Shown in pieces: positions 27,666 to 63,010 of a DNA stretch of 64,000 bases. The DNA comes from Candidatus Poribacteria bacterium (GTDB taxonomy: Bacteria > Poribacteria > WGA-4E > WGA-3G), in contig OZ244048.1 in the NCBI GenBank assembly GCA_965215265.1, positions 1,632,001 through 1,696,000 of the forward strand. Reading direction: 5' to 3'. Made by a program: the position numbers and the translations under genes. Every line of letters begins with the position of its first letter. Position 1 is the first letter of the stretch. The notes under the pieces are model-generated. The model did no database searches. It saw only the letters and a program-made list of their open reading frames with translations, and had not been told where the DNA came from.

Positions 27666-29495
27666 TTACGGTTCACTCGATGAGAAAGACACTGGAATAG
27701 GAATTCGCACTTCACTCAATTTGACTTTGCGCGGGGCCAAAGTCGGTTTTTCGTCAACCCTCTCTGGAAGGAGAAAGTCATCTTCAAAAACTACCACATC
27801 TTTCGTAAAGGTCCACTTTCCATCTCGATAGAAACTGAGCATCACGAGATGATGTCCCCAGCCATTCTCCGGTTCTACGCGTCTGCCAAGTACCAATTCC
27901 GCTGGAATTGTATCGCCGAGCTTCTGGCGGAGTGCTTCGTTGAAAATGTGAACTGCAACCGTTGTTGCATTTTTATTCACATCGCCTGTTACCTCGGCAA
28001 AGTACATATAGCTGTCGTCCTTAACGTAGACAGTGTCCCCGTTTCCGTAATCGGACTCGATTCTAATAGGAGTGCCGAGGTTTGGCGGCAGTGCAGAATC
28101 CTTCGCATCGTGCAATTCAATAGTTTGACTGGCTACCGCCCAATCTGTGACTTTCACGCGACGCAGATAATTCATGATTTTTTCTTCAACTTCCAAACGT
28201 TCCGAGTTAGGAACCCTCAGTGAACCACTATCTTGCGTTGGTATCAAATTCGTAATGGCTTTGCTGTCTGCAGCATGTCGCATCGCAATTACCTTGAACC
28301 GCTCAACACCTGGTGAACCCGTCAAGGCGAAAGCAAAATCAGATTGTTGGTCTGGGAAGGCGTGAATGGTGCCTGCTTCTACGAAATTGTCTTCCTGATA
28401 GGAATTGGGAAAGAGCTGTTTCAAATTGCCAGATGCATCCCAGTTAATGATTATGACGTGCGCACCCTTCGTGACGAGGATACGGAGAGTTAGGTAGTCA
28501 TTTACATGATAGATTGGAACATCGGTATTCAGAAAAGCCGAAAAACTGGCATCTGAATTTGCAAGAGTCCATAACGGACTTTCAATCCCCGGGGGTGAAC
28601 CGAATAAGCGCTTAGGCAAGGCATACGCCTCGGGCGTTTGACTCGCAATCCCTTGCTTGTGCAGCCGGTCTTTGATAGATGGCGATAATAACGGATAGGC
28701 AGCTTCGAACTGATTTTCTGTCGTTTGACGGATTAGGTCAAAGGTTTCTTCCCAGGCAAGAAACCCATCCCTGTCTCTGTCTAACTCTGAGCCGGCCGGC
28801 TGTTGAATGACGTGGAGGAGCACGTTGGTAAATACCCCCCCATGTTGTTCGTCCATCCAACCGTATTCCCCTGCACCTGCACTATCGAAATGCAAGAAGC
28901 CCTCATGTTCGAAAAAGAGATGCTTAATTTTTACGTGCTGGTCGAACATCGGGGAACCGTTATAGTCAGGTAACGGCGTTGTCTTCAGAATCCCTTTACA
29001 CCGATCGGTAATAAGAAGCTTGAGGCGGCAGTTTCCGATGTCCTGAATCATCTGTGCAAAATCGGATTGGAAAAGGTTCCCATCTTGCAGACGTACAAAC
29101 GGCTCAAGTTGCTGCCCTGTTTCCGGGGTCTTCCCGCCAAATCCGCTGAAGTAGATTAAGATGATATCTTGTTCAGCGGGGTTGACTTGGGCAAGCCACC
29201 CTAGAATACCGGTTTTGCTTGCCTCATTGTGTGAACTCAGCAGGTGTCTCTGCTTCAAATGCATATTTCCTTCATCGGCTATTGTGGTTAGCAGACTCTC
29301 CATCTTCTCTTGATTCGCTTTCATGGCGGAGCCGAGGCTTGGATCTGCGTCCATAATCACAAGTAGGGCGTGAACAGTTTGCACATTCGCGTTAACTGGC
29401 ATCGCTAGGTAAACCGAAAGCAGCACTATCCAACATAACCCATACGAAGCACGCCTTAACGTTCTCGTGAAACCGTGGCATTGCGGATGTTTCAT
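27666..29495 (-). CDS. Secreted caspase-like (peptidase C14 fold, His lost) + DUF4384 + C-terminal beta domain
   Basis: Signal peptide; YFSGFG in place of SGHG, LITDRC; LFPNSYQEDN...GVERFKVIA. Confidence 0.7.
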   Translation of the reverse strand: MKHPQCHGFTRTLRRASYGLCWIVLLSVYLAMPVNANVQTVHALLVIMDADPSLGSAMKANQEKMESLLTTIADEGNMHLKQRHLLSSHNEASKTGILGWLAQVNPAEQDIILIYFSGFGGKTPETGQQLEPFVRLQDGNLFQSDFAQMIQDIGNCRLKLLITDRCKGILKTTPLPDYNGSPMFDQHVKIKHLFFEHEGFLHFDSAGAGEYGWMDEQHGGVFTNVLLHVIQQPAGSELDRDRDGFLAWEETFDLIRQTTENQFEAAYPLLSPSIKDRLHKQGIASQTPEAYALPKRLFGSPPGIESPLWTLANSDASFSAFLNTDVPIYHVNDYLTLRILVTKGAHVIIINWDASGNLKQLFPNSYQEDNFVEAGTIHAFPDQQSDFAFALTGSPGVERFKVIAMRHAADSKAITNLIPTQDSGSLRVPNSERLEVEEKIMNYLRRVKVTDWAVASQTIELHDAKDSALPPNLGTPIRIESDYGNGDTVYVKDDSYMYFAEVTGDVNKNATTVAVHIFNEALRQKLGDTIPAELVLGRRVEPENGWGHHLVMLSFYRDGKWTFTKDVVVFEDDFLLPERVDEKPTLAPRKVKLSEVRIPIPVSFSSSEP

Positions 29496-29563
29496 ATTTT
29501 ATGATCCTTTCTCTGTTCCTCTGTTTTCCTCATGAGAAAGAAGAATCCCAAGTAGAGAGTGGG

Positions 29564-31078
29564 TTACCTTGTTTCTTGACGCAAAGTGATTGTAGTCTCC
29601 GCTACCGCCCAATCGGCAGTTGGCACTTTCTGGAGTTCCCGCAAAATTTTTGTCTCTACCTTATCCCGTGGAATAATCTCCGCTTGATAATGGAAAGGGC
29701 TGTGGTCCTCAAGTGGAAGACTCTTAATAATAATGTTTTCAATTGCTTGACTAACAGCTTCATTGTGAATAGCGAGGATCTTGAAACGCTCCCTCCCTAC
29801 TGGTCCCGGGAGGATAAAATCAAAGTCGGATTCCTGCGTAGGAAATGAGTAAATTTGCCCCCGGCTTATGCTTACAAGGCGATTCGGGCTATATTGATTC
29901 GGGAGCAGCACGGTCAGTTTGCCATTTTTATCCCAATTCAATACCGTAATATAGCAATCCTTCTCCGCGGTCATATGTAAAGTGAGGTAATCATTAACCC
30001 GATATATGGATTTGTCCGTCCGGAGATTCACCTCAAAACCGGCGTTTGGATTACGCAATTCCCAGAGACTGTCGACGGGAGGTCCGGGCGGACCAGAGCC
30101 CGAACGTGAACGTTGGGGTAGTGAATAAGCCTTTGGGGTTTGGCCGGTAATACCTTTGCGTTTCATATCCGCCTTCTGGCTCTGTGTAAAATGAGGATAC
30201 GATTGTTCGTATGTCTGCTCTATGTCTTTTTGGGCTAGCGTAAAAACCTCACGCCACGTTACAAAACCGTCACCGTTCGAATCCGATATATCACTGATTA
30301 GCGCCATGAGAGCCACCGTGAAAAAGCTGCCGAATTTTACATGGCACCACGCGTATTGCCCCTCGGTAGCAGCACTGAGATGCAGAAAACCTCTGTGTTT
30401 GCCAAACAGGTCTCTGATGTAACGTTTGCTAACCGTTTCAACAGCAAAACTGCTTGCTAATACCGGCATCCGGGGCGCATTGCTGCAGGCATCCGTGATG
30501 AGCAGTTTCAATCGGCAATCCATCTGTTCTATTCTCTTAGCAAGCTCCGAACGATATAATTTTTTATCTGTGAGTTGCAAAAACGTTTCTCTATAGGTCG
30601 GGCTAACCATGCCGCCATGTCCACCATAGTAGACAAAGATGATATCGTCACGCGAAGGGCGGACCTTTCGGACCCAGGCCAACACATTATCCACCCGGGT
30701 TTCAGCGCGAGAACTGAGATAGACCGTCTTCTCGACACGGTAGACCCGGCTAATTGATGTGAGTAGCCTCTCAACTTTTTCCCTGTCGACCTCTATGGCG
30801 GGACCGATCGTTGGATTTGCGTCCATAATAATGAGCAACGCATGGACAGTTTGAGCCTCCACAGACGGCGGGATAAGAATACCACTGCTCAGCAGAAGCA
30901 GGATGACAATTGTCAATTTTTTGTATATCTTGGTAAAGAATTGTCCTTGCTGGGGCAGGGCGAATTCTTGTCCATCAACGCCTATGTGATGATAACTCGT
31001 GTGTAAATCTCGTCTGAGCCGTTCGATGTGATGTATTGAATTTAAAGATAACCTTCGAATGTTTTCAAATTTCATCAT
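29564..31078 (-). CDS. Secreted caspase-like peptidase C14 + DUF4384
   Basis: YYGGHG and LITDAC His/Cys dyad; LLPNQY...GRERFKILA; ATGA-coupled start; repeat insertion in the signal n-region. Confidence 0.75.
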   Translation of the reverse strand: MMKFENIRRLSLNSIHHIERLRRDLHTSYHHIGVDGQEFALPQQGQFFTKIYKKLTIVILLLLSSGILIPPSVEAQTVHALLIIMDANPTIGPAIEVDREKVERLLTSISRVYRVEKTVYLSSRAETRVDNVLAWVRKVRPSRDDIIFVYYGGHGGMVSPTYRETFLQLTDKKLYRSELAKRIEQMDCRLKLLITDACSNAPRMPVLASSFAVETVSKRYIRDLFGKHRGFLHLSAATEGQYAWCHVKFGSFFTVALMALISDISDSNGDGFVTWREVFTLAQKDIEQTYEQSYPHFTQSQKADMKRKGITGQTPKAYSLPQRSRSGSGPPGPPVDSLWELRNPNAGFEVNLRTDKSIYRVNDYLTLHMTAEKDCYITVLNWDKNGKLTVLLPNQYSPNRLVSISRGQIYSFPTQESDFDFILPGPVGRERFKILAIHNEAVSQAIENIIIKSLPLEDHSPFHYQAEIIPRDKVETKILRELQKVPTADWAVAETTITLRQETR

Positions 31079-32259
31079 TCAGTCTCCTTCTTAGTTTGGG
31101 CAATTGGAATTCGGACTCGGTTAAATTGCAAGCGCCGGTCTCCGCTAAAGGACACCGGTAACAGATAATGGTCTTCAAACACCGTTACATCTTTGGAAAA
31201 AATCCACGCTTTTCCGTCAAAGTAGGACAGGAAAACTTTCTGTGTCCCCCAACCGCTTTCAGGTTTTTCACGTTTTGCATGGATGGCGTTTATGGAAACT
31301 TTATTCCCTAACCTTTCATGGATGTCCTTCACAAAAAATCGAATAGAGACATCCGGTGCCTGCCATTCTGTATCCGCTGTAACTTCTGCAAAATAGGCGT
31401 AGTCTTCTACCGCAATCAGTAGGATTTCTCCACGCGTGTAACGGTAATGTTCCGTCTCAGGATATTCCATGCGGGTTCCGATACGATGGCTGCTCGGCAT
31501 CGGCGGTGCTTCGCTCGGGCGGTATACAACATGGAAGTACGGATGCCCGGAGGGGTTTTCTATGTTCGCAGCCTCGTCCAATCCATATCCAGTAACCTCA
31601 AGCAGATAGTTGTCGCCGCTCGGAATGTTGAGCTGCGTCCGTTCCTCAACGGTATACTCTCTTGTGCCGCCTGCCTCGCGGATGAACCCGGTCAAGAGTT
31701 CGCGTTGTTTGTCCGATTCGACCTCCACATCTGCGCAATAAAAGTTAACAGCGTCACCTCTCCGGTGCTTACTACGGAGGGACGGGCACCCTGGCAACGC
31801 CTGGCTCGCGTTAATCCATTCTGTCCACGTCGCGTGCCCTTGGCGGTTCAAGTCTTTGATTGCCTCCGGCCGATCGCCGAGCCACTTCGCCCACAGATAA
31901 ATTTGATGCTGCTCGGAGTGATAACCCGATAGGATGAGCATCGGGCGATTGAGTAACACTTGGAGTTCATTGAGCAGGTCTACGAGTGCCGGCCGGATCT
32001 GGACATCCGACGGAACATTGTACGTATGCATATCCTCGGAAAAGCGGTATTGTCCTAATACCCCAGCATTGATAACCACATCATCACGGAGAGGTTGTGG
32101 ATGGAAAAACATCGGCGGAATAATCGGTGCCCACCCGCCCAATTCCTCTGAAGAGTCCTTGTGTGCGTAGCTCAGGAGCAACGGTTGTAGACAGAATAGC
32201 AGCAAAAGCACCCAAATGGACATCCGCTTGAAAAAGTGAATTCTAATATTTGCTCTCAA
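31075..32259 (-). CDS. Secreted peptidase M15-like (Zn D-Ala-D-Ala fold) protein with shared C-terminal domain
   Basis: ILSGYHS, SKHRRGDAVNF, YFHV; TTG start after AGGAGG. Confidence 0.55.
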   Translation of the reverse strand: MRANIRIHFFKRMSIWVLLLLFCLQPLLLSYAHKDSSEELGGWAPIIPPMFFHPQPLRDDVVINAGVLGQYRFSEDMHTYNVPSDVQIRPALVDLLNELQVLLNRPMLILSGYHSEQHQIYLWAKWLGDRPEAIKDLNRQGHATWTEWINASQALPGCPSLRSKHRRGDAVNFYCADVEVESDKQRELLTGFIREAGGTREYTVEERTQLNIPSGDNYLLEVTGYGLDEAANIENPSGHPYFHVVYRPSEAPPMPSSHRIGTRMEYPETEHYRYTRGEILLIAVEDYAYFAEVTADTEWQAPDVSIRFFVKDIHERLGNKVSINAIHAKREKPESGWGTQKVFLSYFDGKAWIFSKDVTVFEDHYLLPVSFSGDRRLQFNRVRIPIAQTKKETE

Positions 32260-32292
32260 CAGATAAGCCTCCTTTCTGAAAACCAAATCGAA

Positions 32293-32326
32293 TCCGAGCT
32301 GCACGCAGATCAGAAGAGGTAAAGAT
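32293..32326 (-). other. Post-stop motif and degenerate hairpin (putative DGR IMH/hairpin)
   Basis: TAA-ATCTTTACC then TCTGATCTGC-GT-GCAGCTCGGA; homologous to 58197-58239. Confidence 0.65.
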
Positions 32327-34858
32327 TTAAGGCGTTACAGCCCGCGCACACCGGAACCCGATGTAGGTGGTCGCGTCCGTAGGGGGCCTCATGAGGCGAT
32401 CGGCGACACGCAGGTTTTGGGCAATGTGGGGCCAACCCCCGCCACGCAACACGCGAGTGGACTTAACACTTGTAAAATCATTTACAATCAGATCCAGATT
32501 CGATATGGTGTTCACGTCACTCAGCGGATTCCGAGACGGCGAACTAAAATAGAAATCCGAATCATACGCATCAAGACACCACTCCCACACGTTCCCGGCC
32601 ATATCATACAGCCCATACCCGTTCGCCGCATAACTCCCTACAGGACGGGTGTCCCCTACATTCTGACCGTAGTTCGCCCGCGCAGAGGAGATTGTATTCC
32701 CCCACGGATACTTTAACCCTGATTTCCCACCCCGCGCTGCTTTCTCCCACTCCGCCTCCGTTGGAAGACGCTTACCTGCCCACGCAGAATATGCTATCGC
32801 CGCATACCACGACACATACCTCACAGGATGGTCCCCCTTACCCACTGGATAGTTATTACCTTCCCAACGTCTTAGGTACTTACCATTGTGGAAGGCATCC
32901 GGAATACGCCCCTTCTGCCACTCGGGATTCGCAAGCACGAAACGTTGATACTGCGCGTTCGTCACTTCATACTGGTCCATGTAGAACGCATCCACATACA
33001 CCGTATGCACAGGCTGCTCGTCAGCATCGGCATCGGCATCTTTGCTGCCCATCTGGAAGGCGCCTGCGGGGATGAGCACCATCCCTTCGGGGGCCGCCGG
33101 TGCGGTAGTGCGGGTGGCTGGCGGCGGGATTGGGGGCGTATTACCGGCCGTTCGCCGTCTCGGAAATGAAGGCGTTACAGCCCTCGCGCACCGGAACCCG
33201 GCGTCGTTGAACGCGTACGTTGGTGTATTCCTGAGGCGATCGGCGACACGCAGGTAGCGAGTATCATCGTCCCAACTCCCGCCACGCAACACGCGATAAT
33301 GCTTAACATGTGTAAATCCATCTACAATCTCATCCAGATTCGCGAGCATACTGCCAGACACACCACTCAGCGGATTACTAGACGGAGACTCTGAATAGAA
33401 AGCCGCATCATACGCATCAAGACACCACTCCCACACGTTGCCGGCCATGTCATACAGCCCATACCCGTTCGCAGCATAACTCCCCACAGCCGTTGTACCG
33501 CCTACATTACTAACGTAGTTCGCATGCGCAGAGGAGATTGTATTCCCCCACGGATACTTTAACCCTGATCGTCCACCGCGTGCCGCTTTCTCCCACTCCG
33601 CCTCCGTTGGAAGACGCTTACCTACCCACGCCGCATACGCCATCGCACCATACCACGATACATACGTCACAGGATGGTTCGCCTTACCCGAAGGATAGTT
33701 ATTACCTTCCCAGTGATCTAGGTAGGAACCATCGTGGAGATCGGCCGAAATACGCCCCTTTTGCCACTGCGGGTTCGCAAGCACAAACCGCTTGTATTCC
33801 AAATTCGTCACCTCGTGCATGTCCATGTAGAACGCGTCCACATGCACCGTCCGCACAAGCTGCTCGTCAGCATCGGCATCGGCATCTTTGCTGCCCATCT
33901 GGAAGTCGCCTGCGGGGATGAGCACCATCCCTTCGGGGGCCGACGGTGCGGTAGTGCGGGTGGCCGGCGGCGGGATTGGGCGCGTATTACCGGCCGTTCG
34001 CCGTTCCGGAAATGAAGGCGTTACAGCCCTCGCACACCGGAACCCGAAGTTGCTGAACGCGGACGTCGGGGGTGAATCCCCGCGGCGAAAAGCGGCACGC
34101 AGGAGCCGTGCAGGACCGTTCCAACTCCCGCCACGCAACACGCGAAGTGACCTAACATGTGTATAGTCATTTACAATCTCATCCAGATTCGATATGGTGT
34201 TCACGTCGCTCAGCGGATTACGAGCCGGCGAATTAAAATAGAAATCCGAATCATAAGCGTCCAGACACCACTCCCACACGTTCCCTGCCATGTCATATAG
34301 CCCATACCCGTTCGCAGCATAACTCCCCACAGCCGTTGTATAGTTTACATTCCTATCGTAGTTCGCATCGTTCGGCGTTATCGTGTCTCCCCGCGGGTAT
34401 TTCTTACCAACTAACCCACCGCGCGCCGCTTTTTCCCACTCCGCCTCCGTCGGTAGACGCTTACCTGTCCATGCCGCATACGCCATCGCACCATACCACG
34501 ACACATTTACCACCGGATGGTTCGCCTTACCTGCTGGATAGTTATTACCATTCCAATGTTTTAGGTAATTACCATTGTGGAGCGTGCGGGGGATGCGCGT
34601 CTTTTGCCATTGGGGGTTCGCCAGCACAAACCGCTTGTATTCCAGATTCGTCACCTCGTGCGTGTCCATGTAGAACGCGTCCACATGCACCGTGTGCACA
34701 GGCTGCTCGTTATTACCGGCATCGGCAGCCTCACTGCCCATCCGGAATGTGCCACCGGGGATGAGCACCATACCTTCGGGGGCCGCCGGTGCGGTAGTGC
34801 GGGTGGCCGGCGGCGGGATTGGGCGCGTATTACCGGCCGTTCGCCGTTTCGGAAATGA
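32327..34858 (-). repeat. Three tandem ~840-bp linker+FGE modules
   Basis: Units 32327-33166, 33167-34012, 34013-34858; internal units end GCTGTAACGCCT-TCA where the terminal unit has GCTGTAACGCCT-TAA. Confidence 0.9.
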
Positions 34859-35746
34859 ATACGCGTAAGGCTTCTGGGTTGTCTGACCTATTTTATTCAG
34901 TTTCCGCTGGTTAGATGAAAGGAACGTTGTCTCATTGAAAAGTTTTTGTGTTTTCTGTTGCGTCAGTGCAAAGACCTCGCGCCACGACAGGAATCTATCA
35001 GAATCTCTATCTGCCTCCGCAGTGAAACTATCGAGCAGTGACACAGTGAAATACCCACCGATATCGTCATTTCCCCAGGCGTATTCACCAGCCGACGCAG
35101 CCGTGATGTCCAGAAAACCGCGATGTTCTAAAAACAGATTTTTGGTGTACCGCCGCTCTCTTGACTGAACTCTGGCGTAACGGCGTGCAATCGTTGGTGG
35201 TGCTTGAACCCGATTACTACACGTGTCCGTAATCAGCAGCTTTAACCGGCCTGCTTTGTCCTTCAACACGTTACGAATTCCATCCCGGGAGACAAAATCG
35301 TTCGTGACTTCCGGGTCAAAGTTGAGAATGTGGGTGCCAAAAGCATCCATACTTCCGTGTCCACTATAGTAGATGAGAACTGTATCATCATCGTTCGGAT
35401 GCAACTCTCGGAGCCATTGACCCACCTGTTTCGCTTTGATAATCCCCTGCTTTTCTTCCTGAATGCCGCGTGAATCGGTGTTGGACAGCGTGAACTCCTT
35501 GACCATTCCGTCGATTTCGGTTTCCGATTTCATCAGAGTCACGTGCACCTCACAGTCTTCGGACACCTGCCTCAGCAAGGTTTGCATCTTACTCTCATTT
35601 TTCTCGACGCTCGTCCGGATATCTGCATCGTTTCCCAGGATTACCAGCAGCGCGTGCACCTTTTGTGCATCGGCTGAGGGGGCGGCAACAAGAAAGGAAA
35701 CCAAGACGAAGAACCCTATAGCGTGGACAACTTGTTTTGCAATCAT
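32327..35746 (-). CDS. Secreted caspase-like C14 domain + three tandem FGE-sulfatase (CLec-fold) domains; putative DGR target
   Basis: YYSGHG/LITDTC; 3x (FxMGS, RLPTEAEWEKAARGG, DMAGNVWEWC, RVLRGGxW...GFRCAR); no catalytic FGE cysteine pair. Confidence 0.88.
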   Translation of the reverse strand: MIAKQVVHAIGFFVLVSFLVAAPSADAQKVHALLVILGNDADIRTSVEKNESKMQTLLRQVSEDCEVHVTLMKSETEIDGMVKEFTLSNTDSRGIQEEKQGIIKAKQVGQWLRELHPNDDDTVLIYYSGHGSMDAFGTHILNFDPEVTNDFVSRDGIRNVLKDKAGRLKLLITDTCSNRVQAPPTIARRYARVQSRERRYTKNLFLEHRGFLDITAASAGEYAWGNDDIGGYFTVSLLDSFTAEADRDSDRFLSWREVFALTQQKTQKLFNETTFLSSNQRKLNKIGQTTQKPYAYSFPKRRTAGNTRPIPPPATRTTAPAAPEGMVLIPGGTFRMGSEAADAGNNEQPVHTVHVDAFYMDTHEVTNLEYKRFVLANPQWQKTRIPRTLHNGNYLKHWNGNNYPAGKANHPVVNVSWYGAMAYAAWTGKRLPTEAEWEKAARGGLVGKKYPRGDTITPNDANYDRNVNYTTAVGSYAANGYGLYDMAGNVWEWCLDAYDSDFYFNSPARNPLSDVNTISNLDEIVNDYTHVRSLRVLRGGSWNGPARLLRAAFRRGDSPPTSAFSNFGFRCARAVTPSFPERRTAGNTRPIPPPATRTTAPSAPEGMVLIPAGDFQMGSKDADADADEQLVRTVHVDAFYMDMHEVTNLEYKRFVLANPQWQKGRISADLHDGSYLDHWEGNNYPSGKANHPVTYVSWYGAMAYAAWVGKRLPTEAEWEKAARGGRSGLKYPWGNTISSAHANYVSNVGGTTAVGSYAANGYGLYDMAGNVWEWCLDAYDAAFYSESPSSNPLSGVSGSMLANLDEIVDGFTHVKHYRVLRGGSWDDDTRYLRVADRLRNTPTYAFNDAGFRCARAVTPSFPRRRTAGNTPPIPPPATRTTAPAAPEGMVLIPAGAFQMGSKDADADADEQPVHTVYVDAFYMDQYEVTNAQYQRFVLANPEWQKGRIPDAFHNGKYLRRWEGNNYPVGKGDHPVRYVSWYAAIAYSAWAGKRLPTEAEWEKAARGGKSGLKYPWGNTISSARANYGQNVGDTRPVGSYAANGYGLYDMAGNVWEWCLDAYDSDFYFSSPSRNPLSDVNTISNLDLIVNDFTSVKSTRVLRGGGWPHIAQNLRVADRLMRPPTDATTYIGFRCARAVTP

Positions 35747-57022: not shown

Positions 57023-57976
57023 ATGGGCACCCGGATATTTGACAAACTTAATGACACAACACAACTTGCACGAAGCCCAATTCTCGTTTTCGCTGCCGAC
57101 CCGCTGGCATCCGCTGGTATTAAAGGATTGGGACAGGTTCAACATCCTAAACCGCACTACCGGACGCATGCAGAGTTTTTGCAGCTACAACGTGACCTGG
57201 TTGCAGATGGACAATTGGATGGGCTGCTGATGACACCGGCTGATGCTGAAACGCTGGCCCTTGAAGAAAACCTGTTTGAAGATACACATATCACGCCAAT
57301 TGTTCGGATGAATTCGGAGACAGCTATCTGGAATCCGCGTTTTGGTGTATATACCGCGCGCCCGTCAATGCCCTTTCAAACGGTTTTTCCGGAAGACATG
57401 CAGCGGTATTGTGAAGCACTCATCGGCCCTGCTTTGGAATGCCGGGTTAACCTCGGCCTGTATTCTATTACACTCAACAACGACCCGATTGTTGATGAGC
57501 GGATGCTGCAGGCGTATATCCAATTCGCGCATGTTGTCGGTGAAATTGAGGGGTTTGACCATCTACTAGAGGTTTTTCTACCTAATGTTAAATTGCCGGG
57601 GATGGATGAAGAGAAACGTGGAATGTACGTTGCAGACTCTATCGTGCGAACGATGAGCTACCTACGGAAACATCAACGCCCACGCTTTATCAAAACCGCA
57701 TACACCACTGCTGAAGTATGGTGCGAGTTGTGTGAATTTGATAAAACCTTGGTGATTGGTGCCTTGGGCGGTCCGCGGCAAAACGCACGAAGCACGTTTG
57801 CCCTCGCACATAACGTCATCCAGAACGGCGGGCGCGCCATCTTATTCGGGCGTACCATTTTTGGTGAAGCAGCACCAGTCGGGTTCGTGCAATGCATCCG
57901 TCGCGTGCTTGACGGTGAGGCAGAGCCGCAGGCAGCGCACACCGAATATCAGAAAATGTTGCGGATGGGCCAGTAA
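57023..57976 (+). CDS. Class I aldolase-like TIM-barrel protein
   Basis: FIKTAY candidate Schiff-base Lys, ALGG, GRAILFGRTIF. Confidence 0.55.
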   Translation: MGTRIFDKLNDTTQLARSPILVFAADPLASAGIKGLGQVQHPKPHYRTHAEFLQLQRDLVADGQLDGLLMTPADAETLALEENLFEDTHITPIVRMNSETAIWNPRFGVYTARPSMPFQTVFPEDMQRYCEALIGPALECRVNLGLYSITLNNDPIVDERMLQAYIQFAHVVGEIEGFDHLLEVFLPNVKLPGMDEEKRGMYVADSIVRTMSYLRKHQRPRFIKTAYTTAEVWCELCEFDKTLVIGALGGPRQNARSTFALAHNVIQNGGRAILFGRTIFGEAAPVGFVQCIRRVLDGEAEPQAAHTEYQKMLRMGQ

Positions 57977-58111
57977 CACAGTTTGCCTAAGTCTGCTACT
58001 CCCCACCCGCCCAACTTCCGATGATGGCTGAAGAACCCGTTTTTTTGCCCAAGCGTCTGTCATGTCCCGTGTTGCATGTCTATGTCAGCCCCCGCCCGTA
58101 TCCTAAAATCT

Positions 58112-58152
58112 GTTGGCAGGTTTGGCAGCCGGACCCTGCCAAACCTGCCAAC
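58112..58152. terminator. Perfect 17-bp inverted repeat between convergent genes
   Basis: GTTGGCAGGTTTGGCAG-7 nt-CTGCCAAACCTGCCAAC. Confidence 0.6.
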
Positions 58153-58196
58153 CAATTCTAACGCTTTTTTTAACTAATAGTAAAAAAATCGTAGAG

Positions 58197-58239
58197 GTCC
58201 GAGCTGCATGCAGCTCGGACGGGGTAAAGGGGTAAAGAT
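58197..58239 (-). other. Post-stop motif + perfect 24-bp palindrome (putative DGR IMH/hairpin)
   Basis: TAA-ATCTTTACCCCTTTACCCC then GTCCGAGCTGCATGCAGCTCGGAC. Confidence 0.7.
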
Positions 58240-60213
58240 TTAAGGAGTAACAGCCCTCGCGCACCGGAACCCGACACCGCCGTACGTGAACGTCGGGGTA
58301 AGCCTGCTGCGACCGGCGACACGCAGTTTTCGTGTAGGACTGTTCCAACTACCGCCACGCAACACGCGAGAGGAAGAGATCATAGCGGTCATATAGCGAT
58401 TTACAATCTCAGCCACATTCACGAGCGTACTGCCAGACACACCACTCAGCGGATTCCGAGACGGAGACTCAGAATAGAAATCCGCATCATACGCATCAAG
58501 ACACCACTCGTAAACGTTGCCTGCCATATCATACAGCCCATACCCGTTCGCAGCATAACTCCCCACAGCCGTTGTATTGCCTACATTCCTACCGTGGTTG
58601 GCGTTATTAGGCGTTATCGTGTCCCCCCACGGGTATTTCTTACCAACTAACCCACCGCGTGCCGCTTTCTCCCACTCCGCCTCCGTTGGCAGACGCTTAC
58701 CTGCCCACACGGAATATGCCATCGCACCATACCACGACACATACCTCACGGGATGGTTCGCCTTACCCACTGGATAGTTATTACCTTCCCAAAGCATTAG
58801 GTACTTACCATTGTGGAAGGCATCCGGAATCTGCGTCTTCTGCCACTCGGGGTTCGCCAGCAGAAAACTTTTATACTCGGCGTTCGTCACTTCGTGCATA
58901 TCCATATAGAACGCGTCCACATACACCGTCCGCACAGGCTGCTCGTCACCATCGGCCTCGGCATCGTTGCTGCCCATCTGGAACTCGCCCGCGGGGATGA
59001 GTGCCATCCCTGCAGGCACCGATGTTGCACTCACACAACGAAACCCGGTGAAGCTTGCCGTGAACGTCGGCTCCCTCTTGAACCTATCGGCGACGCGCTG
59101 GTAACGCACATCAGCACGCCAATTACCACCCCGCAACACCCGCATTGACTTCACATTTACGCCAATGTAGTCCGATACAATCTCAGCCACATTCGCGAGC
59201 ATACTACCAGACACACCACACAGCGGATTCCGAGACGGAGACTTTTTATAAAATTTCTTATCCCACGCATCAAGACACCACTCGTGAACGTTCCCGGCCA
59301 TGTCGAACAGCCCATACCCGTTCGCAGCATAACTCCCCACAGAAGTCGTATCGTCTACATTCCTATCGTAGTTCGCATCGTTCGGCGTTATCATGTCTCC
59401 CCACGGATACTTCAGACCTGCCTCCCCACCGCGTGCCGCTTTCTCCCATTCCGCCTCCGTTGGCAGACGCTTCCCTGCCCACGCAGCATAAGCCATCGCC
59501 GCATGCCACGACACATACCTCACAGGATGGTCCCCCTTACCCACTGGATAGTTATTACCGTCCCAACGGTTTAGGTAAGAACCAAAGTGGAAGGCATCCG
59601 AAATACGCCCCTTCTGCCACTCGGGATTCGCCAGCACAAAAGTTTGATACTCAGCGTTCGTCACTTCGTGCGTATCCATATAGAACGCGTCCACATGCAC
59701 CGTATGCACAGGCTGCTCGTTATCCCGCGCATCAGCATCGTTGCTGCCCATCTGGAAGGTGCCGCCGGGGATGAGCACCATCCCTGCAGGCGCAGACGCG
59801 GGAGCCGCAGGCGCAGACGCGGGAGCCGCAGGCGCAGACGCTGCACCGTTAAACCCCGCCGCTACTAACACCACGTCTCCTATATCCACTACACTATTCC
59901 CGTTCATATCTGCCGAACTGTTACCGCGGGTTCCCAGGCGCGCCGCTACCAATGCCAAATCCACTATATCCACACGGCCATCACCATTCACATCCGCATC
60001 ACCTTTGACAGCCGAAAGCATGCCGACATCCGCAGGCAGGCTTACCCCTTGCGCACACACAGCGCCAACACTCCCTAAACTCAAAACTATACACGCCAAT
60101 ATTGCTAACATCACTGACACGCTGTTATTAGTCATTACAGTCCTCCAAACCTTTGACACTTTTTTAGCGGACATTACAGTCCTCCAAACCTTTGACACTT
60201 TTTTATTACACAT
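58240..60213 (-). CDS. Secreted dockerin-like + two FGE-sulfatase (CLec-fold) domains; putative DGR target
   Basis: Signal peptide; DVNGDGRVDIVD and DMNGNSVVDIGD loops; ASAPAAP linker repeats; 2 FGE domains, terminal one ending GFRCARAVTP. Confidence 0.88.
   Translation of the reverse strand: MCNKKVSKVWRTVMSAKKVSKVWRTVMTNNSVSVMLAILACIVLSLGSVGAVCAQGVSLPADVGMLSAVKGDADVNGDGRVDIVDLALVAARLGTRGNSSADMNGNSVVDIGDVVLVAAGFNGAASAPAAPASAPAAPASAPAGMVLIPGGTFQMGSNDADARDNEQPVHTVHVDAFYMDTHEVTNAEYQTFVLANPEWQKGRISDAFHFGSYLNRWDGNNYPVGKGDHPVRYVSWHAAMAYAAWAGKRLPTEAEWEKAARGGEAGLKYPWGDMITPNDANYDRNVDDTTSVGSYAANGYGLFDMAGNVHEWCLDAWDKKFYKKSPSRNPLCGVSGSMLANVAEIVSDYIGVNVKSMRVLRGGNWRADVRYQRVADRFKREPTFTASFTGFRCVSATSVPAGMALIPAGEFQMGSNDAEADGDEQPVRTVYVDAFYMDMHEVTNAEYKSFLLANPEWQKTQIPDAFHNGKYLMLWEGNNYPVGKANHPVRYVSWYGAMAYSVWAGKRLPTEAEWEKAARGGLVGKKYPWGDTITPNNANHGRNVGNTTAVGSYAANGYGLYDMAGNVYEWCLDAYDADFYSESPSRNPLSGVSGSTLVNVAEIVNRYMTAMISSSRVLRGGSWNSPTRKLRVAGRSRLTPTFTYGGVGFRCARAVTP
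60133..60213 (-). repeat. 39-bp tandem duplication copying RBS+ATG
   Basis: AAAAAAGTGTCAAAGGTTTGGAGGACTGTAATG x2; in-frame ATGs at 60213, 60174 and 60135. Confidence 0.85.
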
Positions 60214-60325
60214 TATATACCTCCAAATGCCGCGAAACACTCGCGGCTAAAAATACGAGGGGTTGGAGGCGAGACCGCCGCGTCAAACGCAGACGGCACA
60301 CACACCCTTACACCTCTCTCACGCT

Positions 60326-60934
60326 TTACTTCCTTATCAACATCTTCTGCGTGGCGGAGAAGTCGCCGGCACGCAGCGTATAGAAATAGATACCACTTGC
60401 AACACGCTCACCAGAGGCGTTGCGCCCGTCCCAATACGCGGCACGCGCCTTGCTCTCGTAACGGCCCGCCGCTTGATGTCCCAACGCTAACGTCCTAACC
60501 AAACGCCCGTCCAACGCATAGATGGACACCTCCACATCCGCTGGCACTGCCAGTTGATAAGGTATCCACGTCTCTGGGTTGAACGGATTCGGATAGTTCG
60601 CTAACAGCCGCGGCCGCTCCACAGGCTGCATCTCCCACAGCACCTGTTCAAGGTTCGCTATCCCCTTTGCAAAAACCGCGGAGCCGTCATTGTTGGCACG
60701 TAACAGCGACAACCACTCTGCAACCGTTTCAGGAGAAACCGAGTCAGCGGAGACGGCAGGCAAGCTACGTGCTATGCTTGTGAGCCCGTCAACCGGAGGC
60801 GCAACGCGCTGCGTCTCTGAGTGAACCGGCATCAAGCCGTATTGCGCTTTTACCAGTCCGTAGCAGGCAAACACTAACACCAGCCCGCCCAAGAAAATCA
60901 CGATGCCTTTTTTCGGGTTCTTCCAATCTTTCAT
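60326..60934 (-). CDS. Stand-alone secreted T9SS-CTD/FlgD-Ig-like domain protein
   Basis: Signal/anchor helix; GIANLEQVL helix; LLANYPNPFNPETWIPYQLA...WDGRNASGERVASGIYFY...KMLIRK. Confidence 0.85.
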   Translation of the reverse strand: MKDWKNPKKGIVIFLGGLVLVFACYGLVKAQYGLMPVHSETQRVAPPVDGLTSIARSLPAVSADSVSPETVAEWLSLLRANNDGSAVFAKGIANLEQVLWEMQPVERPRLLANYPNPFNPETWIPYQLAVPADVEVSIYALDGRLVRTLALGHQAAGRYESKARAAYWDGRNASGERVASGIYFYTLRAGDFSATQKMLIRK

Positions 60935-61017
60935 TTCAAAATATCCTTTCGGACGATGTGTCCGTTGTCGATGCGGTTATCGCACCGGTTAGGTTTATAA
61001 GTCGTTATCAGTTTGAT

Positions 61018-61157
61018 TGCGGGTGGGCAGGCGTGCCGAAGCACGCTGTCCACGCACAAATAGGTGAATAGCCAATACGAGCCCACGGTAGGGTGCCGGG
61101 CGATTGTCGCCTCGGCGCCGTTGACATAAGCCGACTCGGCTTGTTAGCGCACCCGCA
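61018..61157 (-). ncRNA. Candidate structured RNA/leader
   Basis: Closing stem TGCGGGTG/CACCCGCA enclosing AAGCCGAGTCGGCTT, GGCGA-CAA-TCGCC and GCGTGC-TTCG-GCACGC. Confidence 0.4.
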
Positions 61158-61200
61158 CACAGAAGCCCGGGGCTCCGACAAGGGGTGCCGCACGCATCAG

Positions 61201-61250
61201 AAAAAAAGCCTGCAACGGCCTCCACCGTCCGAGACGGTAGGCGTGCAGGC
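61201..61250 (-). terminator. Intrinsic terminator/attenuator upstream of the CTD gene
   Basis: GCCTGCA-CGCCT-ACCGTC-TCG-GACGGT-GG-AGGC-CGT-TGCAGGC followed by T7. Confidence 0.7.
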
Positions 61251-61570
61251 GTGAGAAAGCAGCGACTAAGGGTGATGCGGCTTGAGTTAATAAAATGGTT
61301 AACGTACGTAAATCTGGGGGGGGTCAATCGTCTTAACAGGCAGTTAAAACACACGACAGCACGGTATATGCACGCGTTCGCGCAAAGATGCCAACCCCGC
61401 AGCACAGGGCAGCTCACTCTGCTTATGGGATACACGGACTCTCGGTGTTTCATCTGTTTTATCTCTTTCAGCTCAAAACAGAGAGCGTCTCCGACGAGAT
61501 TTACATCGGATTTCAGATAACATAAACCCGTATAGTACCGAGATAGACAAAATTCTGATTCGAGTGAATG

Positions 61571-61807
61571 CATTTTAGCCGAAAACAACACTTTTTGGCA
61601 AACTTTTTTTTGCCTGACTCAAAAGTTGTTTTGCATTATCGCACAATGAACATTTTTTTGTCAACTCTTTTTTCCGAAATAAAAAAGAGACGAACACATT
61701 TTAGCCGAAAATCACACTTTTTGGCAAACTTTTTTTTGCATGACTCAAAAGTTGTTTTGCATTATCGCATAACGAACGTTTGTTTGTCAACTCTTTTTTT
61801 CAAATTT
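61571..61807 (-). repeat. ~110-bp direct duplication, each copy with two sigma-70-like promoters
   Basis: Copies 61571-61680 and 61697-61807; each has TTGACA-18-GATAAT and TTGCCA-18-TAAAAT on the minus strand. Confidence 0.75.
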
Positions 61808-62648: not shown

Positions 62649-63010
62649 TTACCTTCTGCCTTCAACTAAAGCGTCAACGACTGTCGGATCTGCGAGCGTT
62701 GAAATGTCGCCGAGGCTAGTGATGTCACCTTCTGCAATTTTGCGAAGAATACGCCGCATAATCTTAATTGCCAATTCCGGTACCATCTGTAGATAAATAC
62801 AAACCCGGTCGCCTTTGTGAACTCCTTGTGCTTTTAGGACACTGGCGAATTTTTTGACTTCTGCTAAGAGTTCGTTGTAGGTGAATGTTTTATCTTCGGA
62901 AGGATGGTTTCCTTCCCAAATAAGAGACGTTGCGTCGCCGTGCCCAGCTTCAACGTGCCGGTCCAAGCAGTTATAGCATGCGTTCAGAGTGCCTCCTTTA
63001 AACCATTTAA
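62649..63010 (-). pseudogene. acs: Acetyl-CoA synthetase remnant with large internal deletion
   Basis: KWFKGGTLNACYNCLDRH...GDRVCIYLQMVPELAI fused directly to the C-terminal KIMRRILRKIA...GDISTLADP. Confidence 0.85.

Follow-up and report, generated by a model that had tools for sequence, protein, structure and literature searches.

A shared DGR target 3′ end with a candidate hairpin behind two remote, likely retired FGE genes of a probable poribacterium

The window analyzed here, a stretch of DNA of 64,000 nt, contains two genes with FGE/C-lectin-fold domains, gene A (58240) and gene B (32327), which close with a common motif followed by an inverted repeat. This ending is the shared 3′ end of DGR targets; we consider it probable that it serves as a recognition mark for one distant cassette, and that both window genes are retired, having last been rewritten by a somewhat older template. 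The system itself is a DGR, an already known kind of element; the example is unusually large and well graded.

Common 3′ ends of the two window genes

As originally predicted, the two genes share their ending on the minus strand: gene A closes with GCTGTTACTCCT-TAA-ATCTTTACC and gene B with GCTGTAACGCCT-TAA-ATCTTTACC, in both cases RAVTP codons followed by the stop codon and ATCTTTACC (Table 1). The neighbors downstream are indeed unrelated: gene A faces a convergent aldolase-like gene, and gene B is followed by an unknown gene that runs in the same direction and belongs to a caspase-like cluster. The protein of gene A matched the FGE family and TvpA (2y3c).

Table 1. Positions of the target features in the window and of the cassette on C1
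Feature	Position	Strand	Description
Gene A, remote DGR target	58240..60240	-	Secreted-type, dockerin domain and two FGE/C-lectin-fold domains, 666 aa
Gene A variable region (VR)	58273..58368	-	Invariant across samples; with IMH core (114-nt template match), 20/36 A and 8/78 non-A positions differ from template (p 5e-7)
Gene A IMH core, GC-rich	58255..58272	-	Homologous to template 3′ end (IMH*)
Gene A target-only linker	58221..58254	-	AVTP codons, TAA, pyrimidine-rich doubled CTTTACC spacer
Gene A hairpin/cruciform candidate, GC-rich	58197..58220	.	Perfect palindrome, 10-bp stem, CATG loop (cassette target: CGTG)
Gene A degenerate second inverted repeat, AT-rich	58166..58190	-	Remnant of cassette target-to-avd leader
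Gene B, remote DGR target	32327..35746	-	Caspase-like domain and three FGE/C-lectin-fold domains, 1139 aa
Gene B terminal VR	32360..32455	-	22/36 A and 10/78 non-A differences from template (p 3e-7)
Gene B IMH core	32342..32359	-	Template homology
Gene B linker, short form	32315..32341	-	Without one 8-nt unit
Gene B weakened hairpin	32293..32314	.	7/9 pairs, CGTG loop; left arm T/A type, right arm G/C type
Gene B internal VR and IMH core, domain 2	33182..33295	-	Stop replaced by TCA read-through; without linker or hairpin
Gene B internal VR and IMH core, domain 1	34028..34141	-	Without linker or hairpin
Cassette avd (C1)	1419462-1419818		
Cassette RT (C1)	1419880-1420944		
Cassette template (C1)	1421035-1421148		

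The perfect 24-bp palindrome behind gene A has a single exact copy in the 4.83-Mb genome. When compared by eye, the element behind gene B differs from the inner 22 bp of this palindrome at three positions, one in the loop, one producing a T-C mismatch and one a T-G wobble. Folding of single-stranded DNA gave -11.4 kcal/mol for the gene A hairpin (z -5.27), -7.7 kcal/mol for that of the cassette-adjacent target (z -2.89) and -1.8 kcal/mol for that of gene B (z +0.44), which bears out the weakening anticipated for the latter. A relaxed hairpin pattern occurred in the window at these two places only (4 strand-matches; 0.01 expected; reached by 0/100 shuffles). Genome-wide, 11 palindromes of at least 24 bp were found against 0.3 expected; such length alone is not rare here, and the signal resides in position and family. 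A separate perfect-palindrome family, centered on CCTCGAGG, accounts for at least eight copies among the longest 25 (e.g., C1 3572743, 3563248, 1916192 and 1121320).

The motif had been proposed to be the IMH. It is part of the target end, but template homology stops just upstream of it, closing with the 18-nt GC-rich core listed in Table 1; since this core has a counterpart in the template, the core is the IMH by the BPP-1 definition (PMC5758913; here and below, published systems are described from the available sections of the cited papers). The proposed motif corresponds to the linker, which is not present behind the template and has similar spacers in four relatives. This target-only stretch between IMH and hairpin may help to separate target from template, a discrimination role that PMC5758913 suggests where IMH pairs are near-identical. 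The spacer of gene B is 8 nt shorter than that of gene A, a difference absent from the original prediction; two further targets have the short form, one of them with a perfect stem. Homology to the cassette leader extends 88 nt beyond the IMH core at gene A and only 48 nt at gene B.

A single distant cassette

The genome, probably of a member of the Poribacteria, is one contig (C1) with one match to PF00078 (RT). In the cassette, an FGE gene is followed by the Avd gene (NF033474 at 120 bits, cut-off 80), the RT and a 114-nt, asparagine-codon-rich template coding RVLRGGSWNNNTRN...NNNNGFRCAK. The distances from the cassette to the window genes are ~243 and ~269 kb. In the cassette-adjacent VR, departures from the template affect 17 of 36 A positions and none of the 78 non-A positions.

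Within the genome collection, the best-matching RT is 83% identical, and that of a same-family relative likewise 83%. Close RTs were found in two of 40 relatives, the next-closest RTs being mostly cyanobacterial (55-60%).

The target family across the genome

The genome-wide census comprised 52 FGE domains, which remained of 58 FGE matches once the template itself and five fragments had been excluded. Template-like ends were detected in 33 domains; 23 of these end in TAA and represent gene-terminal VRs, 22 of them more than 100 kb from the cassette. The repertoire thus consists of 23 gene-terminal VRs and 8-10 further VRs served by one template, and all 23 terminal VRs end in the same linker.

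With two mismatches allowed, the hairpin was found at 22 loci, namely 19 behind VRs, two behind orphan IMH cores and one unrelated. It lies within 200 nt downstream of 19/33 VR-bearing FGE domains versus 0/19 other FGE domains (p 1e-5). The IMH core precedes 21 of the 22 loci, the exception being a 2-mismatch match. The hairpin was found neither in a reversed-genome control nor behind the template. An intrinsic terminator scan of 57500-60500 called none at the gene A hairpin, where a T run begins 8 nt past the stem, and no terminator-type T run was seen by eye directly after the stem of gene B. These results identify motif and hairpin as a DGR target-end signal rather than a REP or terminator. 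Rfam gave no matches at the gathering score for the cassette and three target ends. A JGI metagenome scan for linker plus hairpin returned no matches, and hence no alleles of gene B from other strains.

The features of a DGR target site are present as follows: RT, Avd and template, an A-biased VR and an IMH/IMH* pair at both genes, and a GC-rich inverted repeat behind the IMH but not the template at gene A, weakened at gene B. A strict rule of changes only at template A was satisfied by 4/23 terminal targets, and by neither window gene. As non-target FGE domains are also A-biased, though more weakly, it is the non-A differences whose count is informative. Two of the four VRs with zero non-A differences, C1:4150273 and C1:4795203, contain indels of 5 and 2 gap positions, which are not multiples of three, and their reference alleles are thus frameshifted. 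At C1:997500-1006800, seven FGE targets stand in tandem with hairpins ranging from perfect to destroyed.

Probable retirement of both window genes

The expectation that gene A is an active target was not borne out. Its VR was letter-identical in the contigs of 4/4 runs from three studies, contained in one contig per run with no other letters; one of these four runs may have yielded the assembly and a second belongs to the same study, but X2 is a different strain. Gene A also carries eight non-A differences and is the farthest from the template among the ten perfect-stem targets. We conclude that gene A is likely retired, not active, despite having the best stem; judging by its sequence, gene B is likely retired as well.

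It is unlikely that gene A is currently active and only gene B retired, with selection or a low rate keeping one gene A allele dominant. Activity would agree with the perfect and most strongly folded stem and with five of the eight non-A differences falling in the 5′ half, where partial 3′ rewriting would spare them; contigs moreover lose rare variants, so that low-level activity could stay hidden. Against this, the same allele persists even in the strain of X2, whose avd-RT differs at 31 of 1573 letters (a 98%-identical cassette allele), the 3′ half or IMH also holds two non-A differences (positions 93 and 108), and the non-A count is the highest of the ten perfect stems.

Retirement of both genes is further addressed by six non-A sites that recur in 11-19 of 31 VRs, five of which are found in gene A and all six in gene B. 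These recurrent sites point to an older template. The templates of three relatives were ruled out as the source of the marks, showing 15-20 non-A differences for both window VRs.

The cassette served as a control in the three contig runs X2, X3 and X7, in which avd-RT assembled cleanly. Contigs spanned the template with no differences in X7 and one in X2, and it was broken only in the deepest run. A hairpin-less VR beside the cassette was spanned in X3 (0 differences) and X2 (2, both outside the VR), and X3 showed the VRs at C1 2358409 and C1 762319, the latter with a perfect G/C stem, with reference letters. The cassette-adjacent VR was spanned by no piece among the eight listed per run in the three runs, with pieces listed down to 120-154 nt and X7 being shallow (cassette depth 4-7); this fits ongoing diversification there, if only indirectly. 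In the raw-read run X8 the organism was absent, and only unrelated FGE genes were seen (47 partial reads, none 95% alike).

Contig depth of avd-RT (L021:2811-4562) against the gene A flank was 315 versus 697 in X3, 4-7 versus 11.5 in X7 and 120 versus 117.5 in X2. From the roughly half depth in X3 and X7, the cassette may be present in some strains only, depth not being equal to a cell share.

Hairpin state and rewriting

Across the 23 terminal targets, one of which had no hairpin match and was assigned three pairs by hand, better stem pairing went with fewer non-A differences (rho -0.67, p 0.0004), also without the four closest targets (rho -0.54, p 0.016). Perfect stems showed 0-8 and imperfect ones 1-12 non-A differences (p 0.0015). 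The correlation was not repeated in relative G004 (rho 0.16, p 0.59, n=13, with a crude stem finder). Three paralogous dockerin genes have the same letters at 34/34 template-A sites in their hairpin-less internal VRs but diverge at 23-26 in their terminal VRs. The hairpin-less internal VR C1:1795117 has just one non-A difference, and so does one target whose loop reads CGCG and whose stem forms 8/9 pairs. Age by itself could account for the decay of stems as well as the drift of VRs, and the paralogs are non-independent.

The ten perfect stems fall into two groups by loop: CGTG occurs in five, with 0, 0, 0, 0 and 2 non-A differences, and CACG, CATG or CAGG in the other five, with 4, 4, 5, 6 and 8. 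The intact-stem CGTG targets are those at C1 1419164, 1795933, 4150273, 4795203 and 2359646. This separation is one of 252 possible splits, in a pattern spotted post hoc and confounded by stem type, second inverted repeat and leader; the four closest targets also have in common a stem of the T/A type, a second inverted repeat that is AT-rich, and 200 bp of cassette leader. The G-to-A loop change that created the gene A palindrome (CGTG to CATG) is plausibly a step of loss or decay. We read it as loss because the perfect stems with CGTG loops are the closest to the template, the cassette hairpins of two relatives have loops opening with GT and the loop is critical in BPP-1 (PMC3240598). A perfect palindrome should accordingly not be equated with activity.

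Conservation of the stem in relatives

Linker and stem are kept, with changed letters, in relatives from four other genera. Two-sided changes were observed at 6/10 stem pairs (16 distinct sequences of 17 hairpins from five genomes), a value reached by 0/500 shuffles and far lower in slid controls than in the true register, in rows that were selected for intact stems, gene B excepted, and with relatedness inflating such tests. One stem pair switches between G-C and T-A within the genome, and gene B carries one arm of each type. In both relatives with an intact RT, the cassette hairpin loop opens with GT after the same CTGC arm.

Target ends with hairpins are also retained in relatives lacking RT (G001 C1:1021833, G002 C1:5271263 and G006). 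G002 keeps target, hairpin and avd, with no RT detected, G001 a relic VR with hairpin, and G006 a 14-15 bp stem, with avd broken and fused to the template.

Covariation of this kind is strand-symmetric and cannot separate DNA from RNA structure. The hairpin could thus act mainly at the RNA level, in transcript ending or stability, or be a passenger of duplicated gene ends with the IMH alone targeting, which we regard as quite unlikely. Co-duplication is real, remote copies bringing up to 200 bp of extra cassette leader, one hairpin-less internal VR is near the template, and inverted repeats were found behind only 127/372 DGRs (PMC5758913). Yet the terminator scan and T-run position described above do not fit a transcript end at gene A, a co-directional gene begins ~30 nt past the gene B hairpin, the hairpin-less paralogous VRs are frozen while the terminal VRs are rewritten, and BPP-1 requires the stem (PMC3240598).

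A generic REP-like or mobile repeat neighboring FGE genes by chance is very improbable and largely refuted by the IMH core in front of 21/22 loci: other palindrome families exist in the genome (the 11 perfect ones of at least 24 bp) and two copies lie behind non-FGE, PA14-like genes, but both of these retain the IMH core and last VR codons and are thus truncated target ends, just one locus of 22 lacks the IMH link, and in relatives 7/8 pattern loci follow VR ends.

The two PA14-side orphan modules (IMH, linker and hairpin; C1:2998807 and C1:4393835) lie ~85 nt past the stop codon. The preceding non-coding DNA is identical at both, while the last surviving VR codons differ, which would mean either that non-coding DNA has been rewritten or that the modules have recombined with other targets.

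Proposed origin and fate of the targets

At five remote loci, ~200 bp of the pre-avd leader is joined to the sequence following the template, and at six more the junction to the same post-template point lies at or near the hairpin; many continue into an Rpn-like gene (match below cut-off). By sequence comparison, the remote loci look like cassette sites without avd-RT-template. The corresponding positions at the cassette are C1:1419388 and 1421281, and 11 remote loci resemble empty cassette sites. Rpn-like matches number 24 genome-wide, 15 of them at least 88% alike, query included.

In the proposed explanation, the shared end as a mark for the distant cassette, the stem would extrude as a hairpin or cruciform and recruit retrohoming, and template cDNA would overwrite the VR upstream of the IMH, both steps following the BPP-1 model. 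A new target would originate when the target end of the cassette is copied without avd-RT-template, and it may fall silent through decay of the stem, as at gene B, or of the loop, as at gene A (CGTG to CATG).

Only tentatively, we suggest that the targets form a parked repertoire, in which just those with a cassette-matching hairpin (intact stem, CGTG loop and cassette-type leader, ~5/23) are licensed, single stem or loop changes lock winning alleles, and the gene A palindrome is such a lock. If so, the roughly dozen cassette-less sites and the half avd-RT depth in two runs would mean that homologous sites and strains acquire and lose the module.

Comparison with known systems

The target ends resemble those of Bordetella phage BPP-1, where a GC-rich stem of 8-10 bp with a loop of 4 nt comes after the IMH at the VR end, no such stem lies behind the template, stem letters are free to vary if pairing is kept, and stem structure and loop sequence both matter (PMC3240598). 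Unlike in BPP-1, the system is chromosomal with more than 20 targets, and the stem is set off by a conserved pyrimidine-rich spacer. Template homology ends 36 nt before the stem, which lies past the stop codon, compared with 4-34 in phage DGRs, and the loops are CGTG, CATG, CACG and CAGG instead of GRNA (PMC3240598). The BPP-1-type GRNA loop at 4-34 bp from the VR was thus not found, the distance at the cassette being 36 nt. Only these phage-specific features of loop and spacing fail; otherwise the ends work like, and belong to, DGR target sites.

As in the Treponema denticola DGR (TvpA), one RT and template serve dispersed FGE/C-lectin targets. That species has seven FGE-type targets, some of them 'suspicious' with excess differences, and targets persist in strains without the core (PMC4891356, PMC5758913). 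Whereas remote targets there number no more than seven, the present genome has 23 terminal VRs plus 8-10 others, and its shared hairpin, which comes in two stem types, allows each target to be scored.

The cellular DGRs of cyanobacteria and Thiohalocapsa, whose genomes have two or more RTs compared with one here, are likewise known to include remote CLec targets, targets of unequal activity, fusions to caspase-like domains and proteins with several VRs (PMC7517822, PMC8867640, 10.1101/2023.09.22.558884). In Trichodesmium, at least 11 of 18 loci are variable (PMC8867640), and in Thiohalocapsa target activity is unequal (10.1101/2023.09.22.558884). The available sections of these three sources neither tie per-target activity to stem or loop state nor name Poribacteria. 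Our literature search found no study tying target activity to hairpin state, and none on a DGR in Poribacteria or sponge symbionts (including the text of PMC8144416), although supplements of DGR surveys may list one. PMC10743442 was set aside as irrelevant, 'hairpin' in its available text referring to protein structure.

Cruciforms have been proposed to activate remote targets (PMC7517822), and this proposal becomes directly testable here with reads. The anatomy is that of a textbook DGR; the value lies in a natural experiment with 23 target ends, one template, graded hairpins, a closed chromosome and deep public data.

Neighborhood of the window genes

Gene B stands at the head of a co-directional cluster (window 27666-35746) with two more genes that combine caspase-like and DUF4384 domains. 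The unknown gene of this cluster at 31075-32262 has its ribosome-binding site directly past the weakened hairpin. Upstream of gene A, two small secreted-type genes, one with a FlgD-Ig tail, occupy 60326-61591, and a 105-aa AMP-binding fragment at 62649-62966 looks like a piece of a pseudogene.
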